From: Candidatus Eiseniibacteriota bacterium
GTDB taxonomy: Bacteria; Eisenbacteria; RBG-16-71-46
Length of the DNA stretch: 64,000 nt
Reading direction: 5' to 3'
Assembly (NCBI GenBank): GCA_963707915.1
Contig: OY970178.1
Location: 1,088,001 to 1,152,000 of the forward strand
The notes beneath the pieces are model-generated. The model saw nothing but the letters and a program-made list of their open reading frames with translations. It did not search any database and was not told where the DNA came from. A program made the translations under genes and the position numbers. Of the stretch, positions 737 through 19,800 are shown piece after piece (within the stretch, counting starts at the first letter, position 1; each line of letters starts with the position of its first letter).

Positions 737-1874
737 CGCCTCCGCGGGGGAGATGCCGCCGGGGGCCCGGGAGCGGAACGCTGCGAGACGCTGGAGCCCG
801 GCCTACGTCAGCCCGTAGCGCTTCGCCCGGTTGATGAGCGTCGTGCGCGGCAGGCCGAGGATCCGGGCCGCCTCGGTGCGCGAGCCGCGGGCCTGGGCGA
901 GCGCCTCCCCCATGCGGCGGCGCTCGGCCTGCTCCAGTTCCTCGACCAGCGTCGTCGGGACCTCGGAGTTCTCGAGCTGGAGACTCTCGGGCGTCACCTC
1001 GTGATCTTCCGCACCCAGCAGGACCACGCGCTTGATCACCGAGCGCAACTGGCGGATGTTGCCCGGCCAGGAGTACCCGGCGAGTCGCCGGATCGCGGCG
1101 GGCGACAAGCGCACCTGCCGCTTCGCCGCCGTGCAGGCCTCCTGCAGGAAATGCTCGACCAGCAAGCCGACATCGTCCCCCCGCTGTCGCAGCGGCGGCA
1201 GCACGATCACGGCGTGGGCCAACCGATAGTAGAGGTCGATCCGGAACCCATCGCCCCGCTCGAGCGCGGCGCGCTCGCGATTGGTCGCCGCGATGATCCG
1301 CGTGTCCACGGCGACATTGGAGTTGGAGCCCACGCGCCGGACCTCGCCGGTCTCGAGGAAGCGCAGCAGGCGCGACTGGAGCTCGACCGGCATCTCGGCG
1401 ATCTCGTCGAGGAACGCGGTGCCCTTGTCGCAGACCTCGAACATGCCCGGCTTGTCGCGGCTTGCACCCGTGAACGAGCCCGCCACGTGGCCGAACAGCT
1501 CGCTCTCGATGATCTCCCGCGGCAGCGAACCCGCGTTGATGGCCATGAACGTGCCCTTGCGCAGGGAGAGGGCATGGATGCCCCGCGCGATCAACTCCTT
1601 GCCGGTTCCCGACTCGCCCAGGACCAGCATCGGCGTCTGGCTCGCCGCGAGCTTGGCCACGTCGTCGAGCAGGGCCAGCATGGCCGGGTTGCGCGTGACG
1701 AGCCTGAAGTTCTCGAACGCCCATGCCGCACGGCGGTCGACGTCCGTCGAGCGACGCGGGCGACGCGGCGCGTGCCGCTCGTCGGCCAGGGCCGCGTCGG
1801 CCACCCGCCCGGCGGCTTCGCCGTGCGGCTGCACCTGAACCGCGCCGGGTTCTCCGGAGAGCTCCGGACTTGAG

Positions 1875-3103
<1,229 letters not shown>

Positions 3104-4604
3104 GACTCCATCCTCTCAGGCAATGGAGCCTCCGGGAAACCCGGCGCGGTTCACACCAGCTTCTCGATCCGCGCCTTCGCCTCGGCCAGCTTCGCCTCGG
3201 CGCCCATCCCGTCAAAGTGGTTGCGCGCAGCCTGGTAGGCTTCGAGAGCGCCCTTGCGATCCGCGTAGGCGCCCGAATGCGGCCCCAGCAGCCAGTCCCC
3301 GTAGGCCATCCAGAGCTTGCCCCACTCGTAGGGGGTCGCGATCTCGTCGAAGAAGGCGAAGCCTTCGTCGAACCACTTCCTGGCCTCGTCCGGCCTCCCG
3401 GTGGCACCCGCGCTCAGAGCCATGATTCGATAGGTGGCGGCTTCTTCGTAGCGGTCGCCAACCCTCTGAAAGTGCTCCAGGGCGGACTTAGCTTCGGCGT
3501 AGGCCGCTTCGTGGCGGCCGAGGAGGCAGTAGCACTCCGCTACCCGACGGCGGAGATCAGCAACGACATCGCCCTTCGGGAACACGGCCAGCGCCTTTCG
3601 GTAGACCTCTTCGTACTGAGTCAGTGCCCCGGCCGCATCGCCGTGCTCCAAGGTCACATCACCCAGATACTCGGCGGCGAGGAGTGCCGCTCGCGATTCC
3701 CGGGAAGGCACGTCCCATCCCGGAATCGCTCGACAGAGGTCCGCCGCCAGAGTCCACCTCCCCTGATGCATCAGGGCGGCAGCCTTTATCAGCTTCGCGT
3801 AGGACAGCGCTGATTGGTCCTCCGAATCGCCTCCGCTAGCAATGCACGTGTCAATGATCTGGAGTGCCTTCTCAATACTCCCACGTCTCCAGTGAAGCAT
3901 GGCCACGCCGCGGCGCGCGTGGCTAAGTTGCCTCCGATTGCCAGCTGCTTCGTGAATCTGCAGCGAGGCCTCGCTTGCCTCCATTGCCTCCGCCCATCTG
4001 CAGAACACACGTTCAAGCATGGCGCGGTTTTCGACCGCAATACCCTCACTCGCCTTGTTTCCCGAACGTCGGGCCGACACGAGACCGTCGAGTGCAAGAT
4101 CGCGCGCGGTCTTGAAGTCGCCCAAGATCGTGTGCGCTGCAGAGAGTTGGATTGTGCAATCCGCAAGAAGATGGGAATCCGGTTGCGTGAGCAGGCGCTC
4201 CCTCAACTTGCTCAATCTGCGAATCGCCTCCTCGGGCCGATTAAGTAGCCACAAGCTTGTTCCCTGCAAGAGTCGAACGCGACAGGCAATTTCGGGCAGC
4301 CTCTGTAGGAGTTCAGGGCAACGCGCCTCAGTGGTCTCTGCCAACTCGAGCGCCTCCGCGTAGCGCCCAACGGAATTCAAGACAGCGACCTTTGCTATCT
4401 CCGCTCTCAACACAATCTCTGCAGTCAGGAACTTGCCTAGTGGCTCAAGTGCAGCTAAGAGACTCATAGCTACGCGGGCCTCGCCCGCAGCAATCAAGTC
4501 CTCGCAGAGTCGGATGGCGGATTCAGCCAAGGGCTGCTGCGCCTGCTCCAAAGGCCCTTCCATCAGGAGCTTCATGAGCGAGGCTGCGCGATCAAGCACT
4601 CTGG

Positions 4605-5081
4605 TCATCGCTTCACCCACGGGCGAGGCGCACACGGCGCAACCCACACTCGCGCAGGAAGCAAGGCACTCAGTGCCACAGTGGCCAAGCTGACAGAGAG
4701 ACCGCTGGGGGCAAGAACAGATGGGAACCACACTCGGCGCGGGAGAATGAATCGGGTTGTAGGGGGTACGTCTGGCTCCCCCATCTCCTGCGTCGGCTTC
4801 GGATCTCCTGGCGTGAGCCGCGGCGCGATGATCCTGGCGCCTCCCTCCCGTGGGTCAAAGACCAGCGTCGCGATCAGGAGCAGTGTGGTCACCATCGCCA
4901 CCCCGACACGAGGATGCCCCTTCGCTGGCGCCCTCGGAGCCCTGCCTCCGTGCGAATCCGGCGTCGCTGCCTCCTCCAGATCGGTCCCGAAGAACGCAAA
5001 ACGGCCCTGCGCCGACGGCAAGGGGCCATCAGCGTAGGGCCGGGGGCAAGTCTCGGTTCGGAACGGAGGGGGTGCGGCCAT
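4605..5081 (-). CDS. Small hypothetical exported peptide precursor (start uncertain: ATG 5081, ACG 4964 or an internal GTG/ATG)
   Basis: Basic stretch, hydrophobic VGVAMVTTLLLIATLVF, possible cleavage after EGGA, Pro/acidic core PGDPKPTQEMGEPDVPP, hydrophobic tail. TGA overlaps the ATG of the TPR activator (ATGA, 4605-4608). Confidence 0.55.
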   Translation of the reverse strand: MAAPPPFRTETCPRPYADGPLPSAQGRFAFFGTDLEEAATPDSHGGRAPRAPAKGHPRVGVAMVTTLLLIATLVFDPREGGARIIAPRLTPGDPKPTQEMGEPDVPPTTRFILPRRVWFPSVLAPSGLSVSLATVALSALLPARVWVAPCAPRPWVKR

Positions 5082-5116
5082 GAGAATCCCGATCCAGACT
5101 ACCGGTTCACCTGACG
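4990..5116 (-). ncRNA. Putative structured leader or small RNA (long hairpin followed by intrinsic terminator)
   Basis: Starts about 6 nt after a -10 box. Pairings CGUCAG/CUGAUG, CCGG/CCGG, AGUCU/AGACU and GGAUCGGGAU/GUUCCGAACC close a loop containing CCCCCUCC; then a GC hairpin and GUUUUGCGUUCUU. Confidence 0.55.
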
Positions 5117-5122
5117 CATATG

Positions 5123-5151
5123 AGCCTAGGCTGGCGATGCCGACCGGTCAA
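5123..5151 (-). promoter_or_regulatory. sigma70-type promoter for the leader/peptide/TPR-activator transcript
   Basis: TTGACC-17 nt-TAGGCT on the minus strand. Confidence 0.75.
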
Positions 5152-5190
5152 GCCCCATTTCATCCGCTGCGCACCGCACTCCCATATGCC

Positions 5191-5222
5191 AAAGAGGCCA
5201 GCCCGTGCGGGGCTGGCCTCTT
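5191..5222 (-). terminator. Intrinsic terminator after the M16 peptidase pair
   Basis: Perfect 13 bp stem AAGAGGCCAGCCC/GGGCTGGCCTCTT with 5 nt loop, ending in TTT on the minus strand, 33 nt after the stop. Confidence 0.8.
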
Positions 5223-5255
5223 CGATCCGGGCCTCCCGGGCCCTGCGTCCCTTCC

Positions 5256-7415
5256 CTACTTCGCCGCCGGCTTCTTGAACAGGTCGTCCGCCAGCGTGGG
5301 ATTCAGCGTCACGTTCGTGACCTTGGCATCCATCACCGGCTTGTCGTCCAGGAGCGTCTTCTCGCTGTGCGGGTACTGGATGTTGCCGACCGGCTTCCAG
5401 TCGCCGAAGACCACCGTGGTCTTCGCCGGTCCGCCGCCCATGCCCTCCCCCATGTACTCCATGCGGGCGATCGCGCCGTTGGGGGCGAAGTAGAGCAGCC
5501 AGTCCCGCGTCGTCTCGCTCTTGACCAACGCCACGCTGCAGGTCAGGCCGTCCACCGTCTTCGGCTCGTCCAGCGCCTGCACCTGGTAGGCGGCGGGCTC
5601 GGCGAACAGCCGGAAGAACGAGCGTTCGTACTGCTTCTTCAACTCCTCGCCTGCCTTGGGCTCGTCGCGCAGCTGGCCCATGCCGGCCATCCAGCCGCTG
5701 GTCCCGTCGAAGCCCTGCGAGAACTCGCCCATGGCGAGCTTGCGCGTGGCGAGGACGCGGTCGGGCAGCCGCCACTGCGTCACGCTGGTCATCGCCATGG
5801 ACTGCCCCTGCATCGTGATGACCTCATCCTGGTTGAGGCCGATGCTCTTGACCGCCGCCCAGGCCGCGCTACCGCCCGCCAGGCCGGCGGCCTTGGTGAG
5901 CAGCGACTGGCCCTTCGCCAGCGCCTCCGGACCGGCCTCGCCGACCGGCAGCGCCAGCTTCGAAGCCGGCGGCGGGATGCTGATGTCGGCGCGCTCGACC
6001 GGCAGGCCCATGCTCTCGAGCGGCTTCTCGAACTCCTTCTCCTTCCCCACCACCACGGCCACGAACTCCGCGGGGCGGATCTTGCGCTTCGCCGCCTCGA
6101 GCACGGTGGTCGCGTTCACGTCCTCGAGCGCCTTCTGGTAGCGCTCAAGGAAGTCGAGCGGGTAGCCGGTCATCTCGTAGAACGCCGAGCGGAACAGGAT
6201 CGCCGAGGGCTCGGCGAAGCTGAACACCAGGCTGTTCACCACGGACTCCTTGGCCACCTTGAGCTCGGCGTCGGTGAACGGCTCCTCGGTCACCCGGGTG
6301 GTCTCCTGCCGCAGCAGGTCGAGCGCGGTGAGGGCCGAGTCGGTGCGGGTGAGCGAGTAGGCCAGGAACACGCCGGGCCGCGCGAAATCGGCACCGGCCG
6401 CCGCGCCGGCCGAGTAGGCGAGCCCGCGCTCGGTGCGGATCTTGTTGACCAGCCGCGACTGGAAACCGCCGCCCAGGGCCATCTCGCAGACGGTCATCGA
6501 GGCGTAGTCGCGGTCGTCGGCGCGGAAGCCCAGGTGCGAGATGATGATGCCGGACTGGGTGACGTCCTCCTTCGGCGCGAACACCAGCCGGGCCTTGGCG
6601 ACGCCAGGCAACGGCGCCGGCGGCACCGGCGCGGCATCGCCCTTCTTCCAGTCGCCGAACTTCGCGGCCAGCAACTTCTTCATCTCGGCGGACTTGAAGT
6701 CGCCGTAGACCGCCACCACCATCCGGTTGGGCTGGAAGATGCGCGCGTGGAGCTTCTGGCAGTCCTCGCGCCCGATGGCCTCGACGGTGGCGTACTCCGG
6801 CTTGCGCGCGTAGGGGTTGTCCTTGCCGTAGACCGACTCGGTCGAGACGCGGATCAGGATCGGGATCATCTCGTCGTTGCGGCTGGCGATGCCCTGCCGC
6901 AGGCCGACCTTGGACAGTTCGATCTTGTCCTTGGGGAAGTCGGGCGAGCGCAGCACCTCGGCGAACAGCGAGAGGACCTCGGCGGTGTTGTCGGCCAGGC
7001 AGCGGAAGCTGCCGCTGGCCTGGTCGTTCGACACGCTGGTCGAGATCGAGGCCCCGATGGCCGCCATCCGGTCGTCGAGCCAGTCGCCGCTGTGCGCGGC
7101 GCTGCCGCCGCTGCGGATGACCTCGCCGGCCAGGTCGCCGAGCCCGGCCTTGTCCGCCGGGATCCACAGCGGGCTGGACTTGAACAGCGCCCGCGCCCGC
7201 ACGACCGGCAGGTCGTGGTTCTCGAGCAGGAAGACCACGACGCCGTTGGGCATCAGGTAGCGCTCGGGCTGGGGCGCCTGCACGCGGCGCAGCTTCTCGG
7301 TCTTGAGCTGCTTCGGGTCGAACTTGGCGTCGTCCTGCGCTCGCGCGGGGCTCACCGCGACGAGCGCGAGCAGGCCCAGAAGGGCCACGCGGAACATCGT
7401 GCGTGCGGTCGTCAT
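5256..7415 (-). CDS. Exported M16B (pitrilysin/insulinase) peptidase, non-catalytic subunit, with an extra C-terminal domain
   Basis: Signal peptide; PNGVVVFLLENHDLPVV, LGGGFQSRLVNKIRTERGLAYS; no HXXEH; extra C-terminal region of about 220 aa. Confidence 0.85.
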   Translation of the reverse strand: MTTARTMFRVALLGLLALVAVSPARAQDDAKFDPKQLKTEKLRRVQAPQPERYLMPNGVVVFLLENHDLPVVRARALFKSSPLWIPADKAGLGDLAGEVIRSGGSAAHSGDWLDDRMAAIGASISTSVSNDQASGSFRCLADNTAEVLSLFAEVLRSPDFPKDKIELSKVGLRQGIASRNDEMIPILIRVSTESVYGKDNPYARKPEYATVEAIGREDCQKLHARIFQPNRMVVAVYGDFKSAEMKKLLAAKFGDWKKGDAAPVPPAPLPGVAKARLVFAPKEDVTQSGIIISHLGFRADDRDYASMTVCEMALGGGFQSRLVNKIRTERGLAYSAGAAAGADFARPGVFLAYSLTRTDSALTALDLLRQETTRVTEEPFTDAELKVAKESVVNSLVFSFAEPSAILFRSAFYEMTGYPLDFLERYQKALEDVNATTVLEAAKRKIRPAEFVAVVVGKEKEFEKPLESMGLPVERADISIPPPASKLALPVGEAGPEALAKGQSLLTKAAGLAGGSAAWAAVKSIGLNQDEVITMQGQSMAMTSVTQWRLPDRVLATRKLAMGEFSQGFDGTSGWMAGMGQLRDEPKAGEELKKQYERSFFRLFAEPAAYQVQALDEPKTVDGLTCSVALVKSETTRDWLLYFAPNGAIARMEYMGEGMGGGPAKTTVVFGDWKPVGNIQYPHSEKTLLDDKPVMDAKVTNVTLNPTLADDLFKKPAAK

Positions 7416-18366: not shown

Positions 18367-19800
18367 TCACACGCGCCGGCGGAAACGCGCCGGCAGGATG
18401 CTGAGCTGCTCCCGGTACTTCGCCACGGTCCGCCGGGCGATCTTGAGCCCCGTCTCGTGCAGGAGCTCGGCGATGCGCTGGTCGGACAACGGCTCGGTCT
18501 TGGCCTCCTCGTCGATCAGGGTCTTGATGGTGTCCCGGGCCGTCCGCGCCGAGACGTCGTCGCCGTCCTCGGTCTCCAGCCCGCTCGAGAAGAAGAACTT
18601 GAGCTCGAACACACCGCGCGGCGTCTGCACGTACTTCGCGCTGCAGACGCGGCTCACCGTGGACTCGTGCATGTCGATCTGCCGGGCGACCTGCTGCAGC
18701 GTGAGGGGCCGCAGGAACGCGATCCCCTTGTCGAAGAAGTCCCGCTGCTCGCGGATGATGCAGTTCATCACCTTGATCATGGTGCGTCGCCGTTGCTCGA
18801 TGGTCTGGATCAGCCAGCGCGCCGAGTTCAGCTTGCCCTGGATGTACTCGCGGGTCTTGACCTCGCCGGCGTTGCAGTCCGCCTTCTTCTTGCCGCGCAT
18901 CACGCCCTCGTAGGCGGCCGAGATGCGCAGCCGGGGCAGGTGGCGGTCGTTCAGCATGACCAGGTACTCGTCGTTCACGCGCTCGACCACCAGGTCGGGC
19001 ACGACGTACTTGGGGTCCTCGCTCGAGACCTGCAGCCCCGGCTTGGGGTTCAGCGTGGCGATCGCGTCGGCCCCCGCCTGGACCTCCTCCGGCGTGACCT
19101 TCAGGATGCGCGCGATCTCCGGGAAGCGCCGGTTCACCAGGTTGTTGAACTGGTCGTGGATGAGCTTCCACGACAGCGTGTCGCGCTCGTTGCGCGCCTC
19201 GAGCTGGATGAGCAGGCACTCCCGCAGGTCCCGTGCCCCGACCCCCACCGGCTCGAGCGCCTGGATGACCTTCAGGATGCGCTCGCAGAGCTCGAGCGGC
19301 TGTCCGGTGGCCTGCGCCACGTCCTCGAGCGGGGTCGCCAGCCAGCCGCGCTCGTCCAGCGAGCCGATCAGGAACTCGGCCAGCAGCAGGTCGCGCGGCG
19401 AGAGCGACAGGAAGTGGAGCTGCTCGAGCAGGCTCTCGGCCAGCGAGGTGCGCGTGACCGGCACCTTCTCGAGGAATTCCGCCGAGGTCTCCTGCTGGGG
19501 GACGTAGACCCGGTCGAGCGCCCCGTCCTGCATGTACTCCGACCAGTCGATGGGATCCTCCTCGGTCGGATCCTCCGCCTCCTCGTTGGCCTTCTCCTCG
19601 GGCGAGTCCTCCTTGGCGAGGTCCTCGTTCTCGGTGACCTCGTCCACCTCCTCCAGCAGGGGGTTCTGGATCATCTCCTGCTTGAGGATCTGCTGGAGCT
19701 CGAGGGTCGGCACCTGCAGCAGCTTGAGCGCCTGCTGCAGCCGCGGGGTCATGATGAGAGCCGGCCGCAGGCTCAGGTTCAGCGAGGGTTTCATTTCCAT
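18367..19800 (-). CDS. rpoN: RNA polymerase sigma-54 factor
   Basis: MTPRLQQALKLLQ, GVGARDLRECL, HESTVSR, RpoN box ARRTVAKYRE. Confidence 0.98.
   Translation of the reverse strand: MEMKPSLNLSLRPALIMTPRLQQALKLLQVPTLELQQILKQEMIQNPLLEEVDEVTENEDLAKEDSPEEKANEEAEDPTEEDPIDWSEYMQDGALDRVYVPQQETSAEFLEKVPVTRTSLAESLLEQLHFLSLSPRDLLLAEFLIGSLDERGWLATPLEDVAQATGQPLELCERILKVIQALEPVGVGARDLRECLLIQLEARNERDTLSWKLIHDQFNNLVNRRFPEIARILKVTPEEVQAGADAIATLNPKPGLQVSSEDPKYVVPDLVVERVNDEYLVMLNDRHLPRLRISAAYEGVMRGKKKADCNAGEVKTREYIQGKLNSARWLIQTIEQRRRTMIKVMNCIIREQRDFFDKGIAFLRPLTLQQVARQIDMHESTVSRVCSAKYVQTPRGVFELKFFFSSGLETEDGDDVSARTARDTIKTLIDEEAKTEPLSDQRIAELLHETGLKIARRTVAKYREQLSILPARFRRRV

Follow-up and report, generated by a model that had tools for sequence, protein, structure and literature searches.

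A small, putatively exported protein encoded in overlap with a TPR/sigma-54 activator in Candidatus Eiseniibacteriota, and a damaged copy of the cassette

We analysed a stretch of 64,000 nucleotides (nt) from a Candidatus Eiseniibacteriota genome (GCA_963707915.1, contig OY970178.1, positions 1,088,001–1,152,000; hereafter the window), in which an open reading frame (ORF) on the minus strand had been described in an earlier note as a small pro-peptide-like gene ahead of an activator gene. We are confident that a conserved gene for a small, putatively exported protein lies here directly ahead of a sigma-54 activator gene, that it belongs to a family with a canonical ATG start, and that it is translationally coupled to the activator. 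The flagged ORF itself is a composite, in which codons 1–53 (5081–4923) lie on a 5′ leader and codons 54–158 (4922–4608) belong to the small-protein family. In family f1 of this uncultivated phylum, the complete cassette consists of a sigma-70-type promoter, a leader of ~195 nt, a small gene of ~100 amino acids (aa), and an overlapping activator gene of ~828 aa with a tetratricopeptide repeat (TPR) sensor. In the genome analysed here (G000) the cassette is damaged: the small gene has lost its ATG and has a weak Shine–Dalgarno (SD) sequence, and the activator gene is cut by a recently active insertion sequence (IS) of the IS3 family. The features around the small gene are as follows.

4605–5081, minus strand: flagged ORF, 158 aa from the ATG at 5081.
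4962–4977, minus strand: GGAGGAGG (4977–4970) and ACG (4964–4962), a start site without conservation.
4931–4949, minus strand: GGAG-N6-CTCC hairpin (4949–4936) followed by a degraded SD, GAGGG (4935–4931), from alignments with relatives.
4920–4922, minus strand: AAG at the canonical ATG position of the family, from an ungapped alignment with genome G005, which has ATG.
4608–4922, minus strand: body of the small exported-protein gene, 105 codons, from family alignments and profile (HMM) matches; h-region at 4895–4857, c-region PREGGA at 4853–4836, PGDP at 4811–4800, core GEPDVP at 4781–4764, and variable tail at 4763–4608.
4605–4608, minus strand: ATGA, the overlap of small-gene stop and activator start.

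A six-frame search with the 158-aa ORF returned one strong relative, in G005 (2e-33, 50% identity), located directly upstream of the TPR-activator of that genome; the match in genome G004 was limited to residues 1–29, and no Pfam family matched the ORF. To find the small genes of the relatives, we scanned the DNA ahead of TPR-activator orthologs for the motif and then extracted the ORFs. Orthologs at contig ends were left out; of the 20 group-A activator orthologs for which DNA further upstream was available, 19 had the small gene and only that of G004 lacked it. The family proteins are 86–110 aa long and comprise a start of the form M-K/R-x-x-R-R-W, a hydrophobic stretch, P-x-E-G-x-A, a proline-rich stretch, an invariant G-[DE]-P-D motif that is mostly continued by x-P, and an unconserved tail. 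The G, P, and D of the motif were invariant in alignments of 14, 25, and 31 sequences.

A 14-member profile matched 41 of the 206 genomes of the phylum (37/88 in its own family f1, with three matches outside f1), and a 31-member profile matched 346 representatives at E ≤ 0.001 among 1.84 billion proteins. Among the best 151 of these 346, profile position 1 was the start of the match in most, the median length was 101 aa (here 105 codons from the AAG or 158 from the ATG at 5081), and 141 held G[DE]PD. Of the latter, 117 had P at +6 and 75 had R as the last residue, a frequent ending because the ATGA overlap favours it. Searches of Pfam and NCBIfam with 14 family members gave nothing meaningful, and a word-indexed protein search gave five proteins only, "hypothetical" or without a name. 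In a protein atlas, the paralog of this genome fell in unnamed clusters whose few labelled members were Candidatus Eiseniibacteriota. No description of such a cassette of an exported small protein and a TPR/sigma-54 activator was found in the literature, with supplements outside the search, and none of the listed titles on Eisenbacteria dealt with one.

All the sequence features named in the earlier note were present: a signal-like start with a hydrophobic stretch at ORF residues 63–75, the EGGA sequence, the two copies of G(D/E)P, a second hydrophobic stretch at residues 127–141 (4703–4659), and the SD-like and ACG sequences. Its description of a pro-peptide-like small gene is borne out by the family alignments, which show a real conserved gene, and the homologues confirm G(D/E)PD as the conserved core; the repeated use of G(D/E)P holds as well, since close relatives also carry the additional GDP copy upstream. 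The basic n-region, the hydrophobic stretch of 15–18 residues, and the small-residue P-x-E-G-x-A site in the alignments suggest export by Sec. AlphaFold2 (AF2) predicted a helix only at residues 6–22 of the small protein and no secondary structure in the mature part; an unstructured mature chain of this kind would fit a linear-motif ligand.

The family start was located by comparison with relatives. In all 27 other loci with a start examined, the small gene begins with an ATG 14 codons downstream of the ACG position, and in 9 of 13 relatives this ATG stands in the context GGAG-N6-CTCC-GAAGGAG-N6-ATG, in full or as a close variant. Compared with G005 and G004, G000 has AAG for the ATG, GGG at a second ATG, and GAGGGCG for GAAGGAG, and it is the only one of the 28 examined loci without a small-gene ATG. 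Loss of the start through a 12-nt deletion was ruled out, as the aligned sequences differ here by a substitution and no gap separates them. The earlier note had placed the start of a 119-aa propeptide at the in-frame ACG (codon 40), 5 nt behind the strong SD GGAGGAGG, and had considered a non-canonical start or a decayed ATG. Although the spacing and SD strength are as described, a start at the ACG is hardly credible: the aligned position reads GCG in G005 and a gapped CG(-)CGG in G004, with ATG in neither, G005 has GAGCGAAC in place of the SD, the site lies within the conserved leader downstream of a hairpin, and relatives begin 14 codons further downstream. The octamer GGAGGAGG alone is unremarkable, occurring nine times in the window against 4.97 expected, a number reached in 8 of 100 shuffles. 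An ATG did decay, as the earlier note supposed, but at 4922–4920 and not at 4964.

The stop codon of the small gene (TGA, 4607–4605) overlaps the start codon of the activator (ATG, 4608–4606). Among the 26 loci in which the activator frame could be placed by tblastn, the overlap was kept in 25 (4 nt in 16, 8 nt in six, and 17–20 nt in three), which upholds the translational coupling proposed in the earlier note. The G[DE]PD motif and the stop/start overlap are both far beyond chance. The sole locus without the overlap is in G021 (L029/L043), where a TGA and a TAG interrupt the activator match; this cassette, too, may be decaying.

Upstream of the small gene, alignment, divergence, and covariation delineated a structured leader behind a promoter.

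5123–5151, minus strand: sigma-70-type promoter, with −35 TTGACC (5151–5146), a 17-nt spacer, and −10 TAGGCT (5128–5123).
4923–5116, minus strand: structured 5′ leader, about 195 nt.
About 5046–5103, minus strand: P1, with the AUG (5081–5079) in the loop; the CCCCUC box is at 5074–5065.
5001–5043, minus strand: P2 hairpin, arms 5043–5025 and 5019–5001, followed by a U-rich tract at 5001–4990.
4923–5081, minus strand: probable leader upstream ORF (uORF) of 53 codons, in G000 forming one continuous frame with the small gene, from openness tests.

Within the locus, the three closest genomes were most alike over 5116–4990, and the similarity begins upstream of the ATG at 5081. Compared with G005, the proportions of synonymous (pS) and non-synonymous (pN) differences in the leader were 0.15 and 0.19 with a non-synonymous to synonymous ratio (ω) of 1.28, as against a pS of 0.67 and an ω of 0.25 in the TPR gene; the constraint is therefore on the nucleotides and not on the peptide. 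Compensatory pairs were found at 11 of 54 pairs in five leaders and at 12 of the 15 P2 pairs in 18 leaders from 11 genera. Across these 18 leaders, a conserved AUG and the CCCCUC box precede P2 and a U-rich tract follows it; the tract behind the P2 hairpin is U-rich yet interrupted. A covariance model of both hairpins found one copy per genome, in genus g1 only (5/89 genomes, counting G000). A search of Rfam with 4300–5500 gave no significant match (best Scr3202, E 0.99, 23.2 bits against a gathering score of 52 bits), and a tRNA/tmRNA search found none. The leader ORFs start proline-rich (e.g. M-x-x-S-P-x-P; here M-A-A-P-P-P), as encoded by the CCCCUC box (5065–5081), which might act at the RNA level, mimic an anti-SD sequence, or slow translation at the start of the peptide.

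A promoter of the form TTGAC-N17–19-TAnnnT stood 197–246 nt upstream of the small-gene start in 17 of 25 group-A loci and was kept in the alignment of G000, G005, and G004. A sigma-54 promoter ahead of the small gene was rejected: 31 upstream regions held no strict match and four loose ones at scattered distances. The TGGCAT...GTGC at about 5201–5186 has the wrong spacing for such a promoter.

The leader probably also carries a translated frame. An ORF from the aligned leader AUG or GUG is open for ~50 codons to the small-gene start in 15 of 17 leaders, compared with 14/34 for the other two frames. It stops on the small-gene start codon (ATGA or TGATG) in 11 of the 15 and is in frame with the small gene in four, including G000 and G005. 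In a wider test the leader ORF was open in 21 of 28 loci, whereas shuffles gave an expectation of 11.1, and 12 of 17 genera had at least one such locus. Breaks of the flagged frame among homologous loci, which the earlier note would have taken as refutation, count in part against its N-terminal third, where 11 of 17 leaders are in another frame than the small gene. In G004, whose TPR ortholog is the closest (65% identity), the small gene has been deleted (roughly 200 nt; locus L003, 1501–1749), and the promoter, leader, and SD hairpin are kept. The leader ORF of G004 (82 codons) ends in ATGA on the activator ATG, which is the strongest single item for a relay of frames. In such a relay, translation would begin at the conserved AUG of the leader (here 5081), ribosomes would traverse the leader hairpin along a uORF of ~52 codons, and stop/start overlaps would take them first to the small gene and next to the activator. 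From these sequence patterns, we regard a relay of three coupled frames (uORF, small gene, and activator) as reasonably likely.

The activator gene downstream was reconstructed from three segments.

3154–4608, minus strand: N-terminal TPR sensor half, 485 aa (ORF 3151–4608; Pfam TPR_12, 2.1e-22).
1836–3153, minus strand: IS3-family element with orfA (2783–3103) and orfB (1875–2786), carrying HTH_Tnp_1 and rve domains.
803–1835, minus strand: C-terminal half with sigma-54 AAA+ domain, lid, and Fis-type helix-turn-helix (HTH), a 343-aa ORF (Sigma54_activat, 9.4e-57; AAA_lid_14; HTH_8).

The IS3 element interrupts the activator precisely at the boundary of TPR sensor and AAA+ domain. Its ends are 24-nt inverted repeats (92% complementary) with GGTG flanking both, and without the element and one GTG the TPR frame runs on into the AAA+ frame. 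The frames that hold the TPR match in relatives are open over 776–955 aa, and four intact orthologs are 822–828 aa long. The GSFTGA loop at 1480–1463 is of the GAFTGA type, and the activator fits the criteria for bacterial enhancer-binding proteins. Three copies of the element, 100% identical, occur in the 3.6-Mb genome (the others at G000:C1:447075 and 1460333); the insertion is therefore recent. The remaining AAA+/HTH half (803–1834) is without a regulatory N-terminus. Truncated activators of this kind can be constitutively active, if expressed.

The TPR half was modelled by AF2 as all helical repeats, with a pLDDT of 91.5. Its profile matched the peptide-binding TPRs of LGN/Pins (1e-13) and kinesin light chain, and NprR (2.8e-5) and RapJ (8.9e-5) more weakly; the top Foldseek matches were LGN-peptide complexes, and APC5 and OGT were also matched. 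On these model-based comparisons, the TPR half most resembles TPR superhelices that wrap extended peptides, as in LGN/Pins. Identity to G005 was 87% in the AAA+ half, 55% in the sensor half, and 38% in the small protein. The G+C content at third codon positions (GC3) was 0.65–0.75 in the TPR half and 0.82–0.96 in the AAA+ half, in this genome and in four relatives (L010, L011, L013, and L014), and the small gene had likewise a lowered GC3 in all four relatives checked. The dip could reflect fast or diversifying evolution or recombination of the sensor module.

Since the ATG of the small gene is AAG in G000 and the SD weak, any translation of it there depends on the leader AUG, which is in frame and yields exactly the flagged 158-aa frame. 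The ATG at 5081 probably serves as a genuine start, and the 158-aa frame is probably a lineage-specific fusion of uORF and small gene. Such a fusion would permit translation despite the lost internal ATG and, with cleavage at P-x-E-G-x-A, would leave the mature product unchanged. The odds that the small protein is still made in this genome are about even. Equally balanced is the alternative for this copy, though not for the family, that it is a decaying remnant, left open after loss of the start codon and untranslated. The substitution of the ATG and the degraded SD, unique among the 28 loci, fit a remnant, as do the destruction of the partner activator by the IS, an ω of 0.73 against G005 over codons 54–130, and the flat position-specific G+C of the ORF (0.69/0.62/0.70, where housekeeping neighbours have a GC3 of 0.93–0.98). 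Against a remnant, the frame remains open over all 105 codons, translation could be driven by the leader AUG, which lies in frame, the identical IS copies imply a recent insertion, and a low GC3 is also found in the intact TPR genes of relatives. GC3 was dropped as a coding test, being uninformative where intact TPR halves of relatives are also low (0.65–0.75).

A contig of 173 nt from a soil run, 96% identical to this region, also speaks against a remnant in that it keeps both the AAG and the open frame. It was one of four short contigs from three DNA runs with small shares (0.05–0.06), which left the leader and the ACG site uncovered; no RNA run was listed as containing this DNA. Over 4781–4945 it had seven differences, none at 4920–4922, of which four were synonymous and three non-synonymous in this frame. 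At the sequence level, this weakly suggests that the AAG is real and that the frame has persisted.

Relatives of the regular pair were also observed. G000 has a second, "group B" pair (L061, 672–3671; G000:C1, about 1910172–1913170), the small protein of which has 118 aa (L061, 3315–3671) and carries GDPDVPMGPGDG. The group-B proteins are longer, and their C-terminus is an alternating hydrophobic strand with F, which in the protein of G000 resembles the end of outer-membrane proteins. In G000 about 40 nt separate the group-B small gene from its paralogous TPR/sigma-54 activator, and other group-B loci are likewise without overlap. The group-B activator of G000 shifts frame near the RERL motif of the AAA+ lid, which is either a real frameshift or an assembly error. 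In G032, an extra small ORF (L020, 685–1002) with a signal-like N-terminus and three copies of G[DE]PDxP lies upstream of the regular pair.

For the function of the cassette, we prefer the reading in which the exported small protein is the partner or signal of the TPR sensor of the activator, with a rough probability, judged from sequence, of 0.35–0.4 (0.4 for the whole explanation, including this signal-and-sensor step). The small protein would be exported by Sec and cleaved after P-x-E-G-x-A, and the TPR sensor would read, directly or through intermediates, its unfolded mature part with G[DE]PD as cognate partner or signal. The output would be sigma-54 transcription at unlinked promoters, in a logic like that of the RRNPP peptide-receptor systems. 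This reading is favoured by the faster divergence of the sensor half and the small protein than of the AAA+ half, by the paralogous pair elsewhere in the genome, by the three motif copies in the extra ORF of G032, and, as genomic background, by rpoN, the further activator genes, and Opp-type binding proteins. The cassette stands alone and its targets are unlinked, as follows from the variable genes downstream and from synteny of the upstream M16 peptidase genes that is limited to genus g1; the latter also led us to drop these peptidases as processing enzymes.

Several observations weigh against the preferred reading. G004 keeps an intact 828-aa activator and the leader without a small gene, so the small protein is dispensable for having the activator. 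The near-invariant motif across genera and paralogs is a poor fit to a strain-specific pheromone, and the receptor is cytoplasmic, so that in a double-membraned cell a direct reading would require re-import through the envelope. No RRNPP receptor was among the Foldseek matches listed, and the fold matches to LGN, APC5, and OGT are generic. No conserved operon follows the activator, the downstream genes differing in all nine loci checked. As regards the relay, the openness of the leader ORF is suggestive and not proof, being about twofold over shuffles in loci that are related to each other, and the uORF peptide is not conserved (ω 1.28). A generic promoter consensus scan does not call the TTGACC/TAGGCT promoter, and a generic scan of 4400–5400 called no terminator and missed the P2 hairpin. 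A complex prediction with the TPR half and small-protein residues 25–105, both given as alignments, scored 0.00 against a mark of 0.32, with controls not run, and counts neither way.

The preferred reading can be compared with the RRNPP(A) systems of Bacillota and their phages (Rap-Phr, NprR-NprX, PlcR-PapR, and AimR-AimP). Passages of PMC10075063 give the RRNPP signature as a Sec-secreted propeptide of 10–100 aa and a receptor of 250–500 aa with TPRs, encoded by directly neighbouring genes, and in those passages cassettes of peptide and TPR receptor are known only from Bacillota and their mobile elements. In our cassette the TPRs (TPR_12, 2.1e-22; pLDDT 91.5) and the gene adjacency (25/26 loci) agree with this signature, and the propeptide, with its median of 101 aa, is at or just over the limit of 100 aa. 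The receptor of 822–828 aa is outside the size range (the TPR part alone has 485 aa), and homology to RRNPP receptors is lacking in that NprR and RapJ (2.8e-5 and 8.9e-5) rank below LGN/Pins and kinesin light chain.

Both systems have a signal-like small gene beside the gene for a cytoplasmic regulator with a TPR sensor, on the same strand; in both, the small protein and the sensor evolve fast beside a conserved output part, and some members have repeated copies of the motif, as in the tandemly duplicated pheromone propeptides described in part of PMC11343458. By contrast, the receptor here has ~828 aa with sigma-54 AAA+ and Fis HTH output, the small gene is upstream and translationally coupled, and the motif has an internal position and hardly varies. 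The cassette belongs to a phylum other than Bacillota, the TPR half has no specific affinity in sequence or fold to RRNPP receptors, and binding is putative. By analogy, the cassette may work like an RRNPP cassette without being a member.

A second parallel for the preferred reading is found in type III secretion. In the IpgC-MxiE and SicA-InvF circuits, a cytoplasmic TPR protein ties the export state of a secreted partner to transcription. The cassette would share this use of a cytoplasmic TPR between an exported partner and transcription, but it has no type III system, its TPR is fused to the activator, and its partner has a Sec-type signal.

The main rival, which we consider unlikely, is that the small gene is a regulatory ORF acting only in cis: the nascent chain, with its signal peptide and G[DE]PD(x)P motif, would report membrane targeting or secretion, or stall the ribosome, and so set the flow of ribosomes to the activator start, and the released protein would be functionless. 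Such a role would suit the conservation pattern, which is limited to the N-terminal signal-like part and one short Pro/Asp motif, the tail being free in sequence while its frame and the stop/start overlap are kept. The motif lies 21–31 residues behind the end of the hydrophobic stretch, as counted on the family sequences, the chain of coupled frames begins in the leader, and G004 couples its uORF directly to the activator without a small protein. However, the motif is about 50 codons ahead of the activator start. Known arrest sites adjoin the element that they regulate. Further, the group-B paralogs keep the protein and the motif without the overlap, one relative has a paralog with three motifs, and stalling is purely hypothetical here.

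Two known arrangements bear on this cis-acting alternative. In SecM-secA, VemP-secDF2, and MifM-yidC2, the gene under translational control comes directly after that of its controller, a small protein that is exported or targeted to the membrane. The gene order is the same here, and so is the restriction of conservation to a targeting signal and a short Pro-containing motif; different are the downstream gene, a transcription activator and not a translocon part, the coupling, which is by stop/start overlap and not by unmasking of an SD, and the distance of the motif (~50 codons) from the junction. In the pyrBI, trp, and tnaC attenuators, a short leader ORF runs across a terminator-like hairpin and a U-rich tract. 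Our leader ORF similarly crosses a hairpin followed by a U-rich tract, but it reaches the next gene or is fused with it, the run of U is imperfect with no terminator called, and no regulatory codon run was identified beyond the Pro-rich start (S/P-P-x-P).

A bolder form of the preferred reading, which we consider quite unlikely, takes the uORF, the exported pro-protein, and the TPR/sigma-54 receptor as a relay-translated peptide signalling cassette. After cleavage by signal peptidase, a second cut at the Asp-Pro of G-[DE]-P-D would release a proline-rich peptide of ~20 residues; once re-imported, this peptide would be sensed by the TPR superhelix and so switch sigma-54 promoters. RRNPP-type communication would then have evolved independently outside Bacillota and with another kind of output machinery. 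The Asp-Pro cut can be likened to the acid-labile or autocatalytic GDPH sites of eukaryotic proteins. Opp-type binding proteins were found in the genome, and the same search was also positive in 11 of 14 control genomes.

Very unlikely, in our judgement, is a partner located in the envelope, in which the small protein in or at the inner membrane would sequester and release the TPR-activator as an anti-activator (cf. anti-sigma factors or PspA-type proteins). The tight 1:1 coupling of the genes, the hydrophobic stretches at the N-terminus and in the tail, and the basic C-termini (75 of 141 ending in R) could be so explained. The tail stretch, however, is short, often charged, and not conserved, AF2 predicts no second helix, the terminal R is explained by the ATGA overlap, and cleavage of a signal peptide would leave hardly any of the protein on the cytoplasmic side.

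We dismiss a sorting protein of the PEP-CTERM/exosortase type, with the acidic Pro motif, hydrophobic stretch, and basic end as a C-terminal anchor signal, although the genome encodes an exosortase homolog (1.6e-58) and part of PMC1569441 connects PEP-CTERM systems to a TPR protein and to a regulator of the sigma-54 type: none of 14 members matched any PEP-CTERM-type NCBIfam model at E ≤ 1, 40–60 unconserved residues follow the motif in place of an immediate helix and Arg cluster, and no second helix is predicted.

The usual inputs of sigma-54 activators are two-component, GAF, PAS, or partner-protein. If the preferred reading is correct, the exported small protein and the TPR sensor would constitute a new route by which outside information reaches sigma-54 control. 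The cassette is a compact testable module of four parts in about 3.3 kb, with a structured leader and overlapping frames. For annotation, it adds a family of 346 representatives without a family name, in which the true start differs from the visually attractive one.

The genome has rpoN, as its only Sigma54_DBD match (5.6e-63), in the window at about 18373–18849, and 17 strong sigma-54 activator genes. Upstream of the cassette, a perfect G+C-rich hairpin with a short T run (5190–5222) follows the M16 peptidase gene (stop at 5256). The generic scan gave no call for it; it is kept in G004 and G005 and is probably the terminator of the M16 operon.

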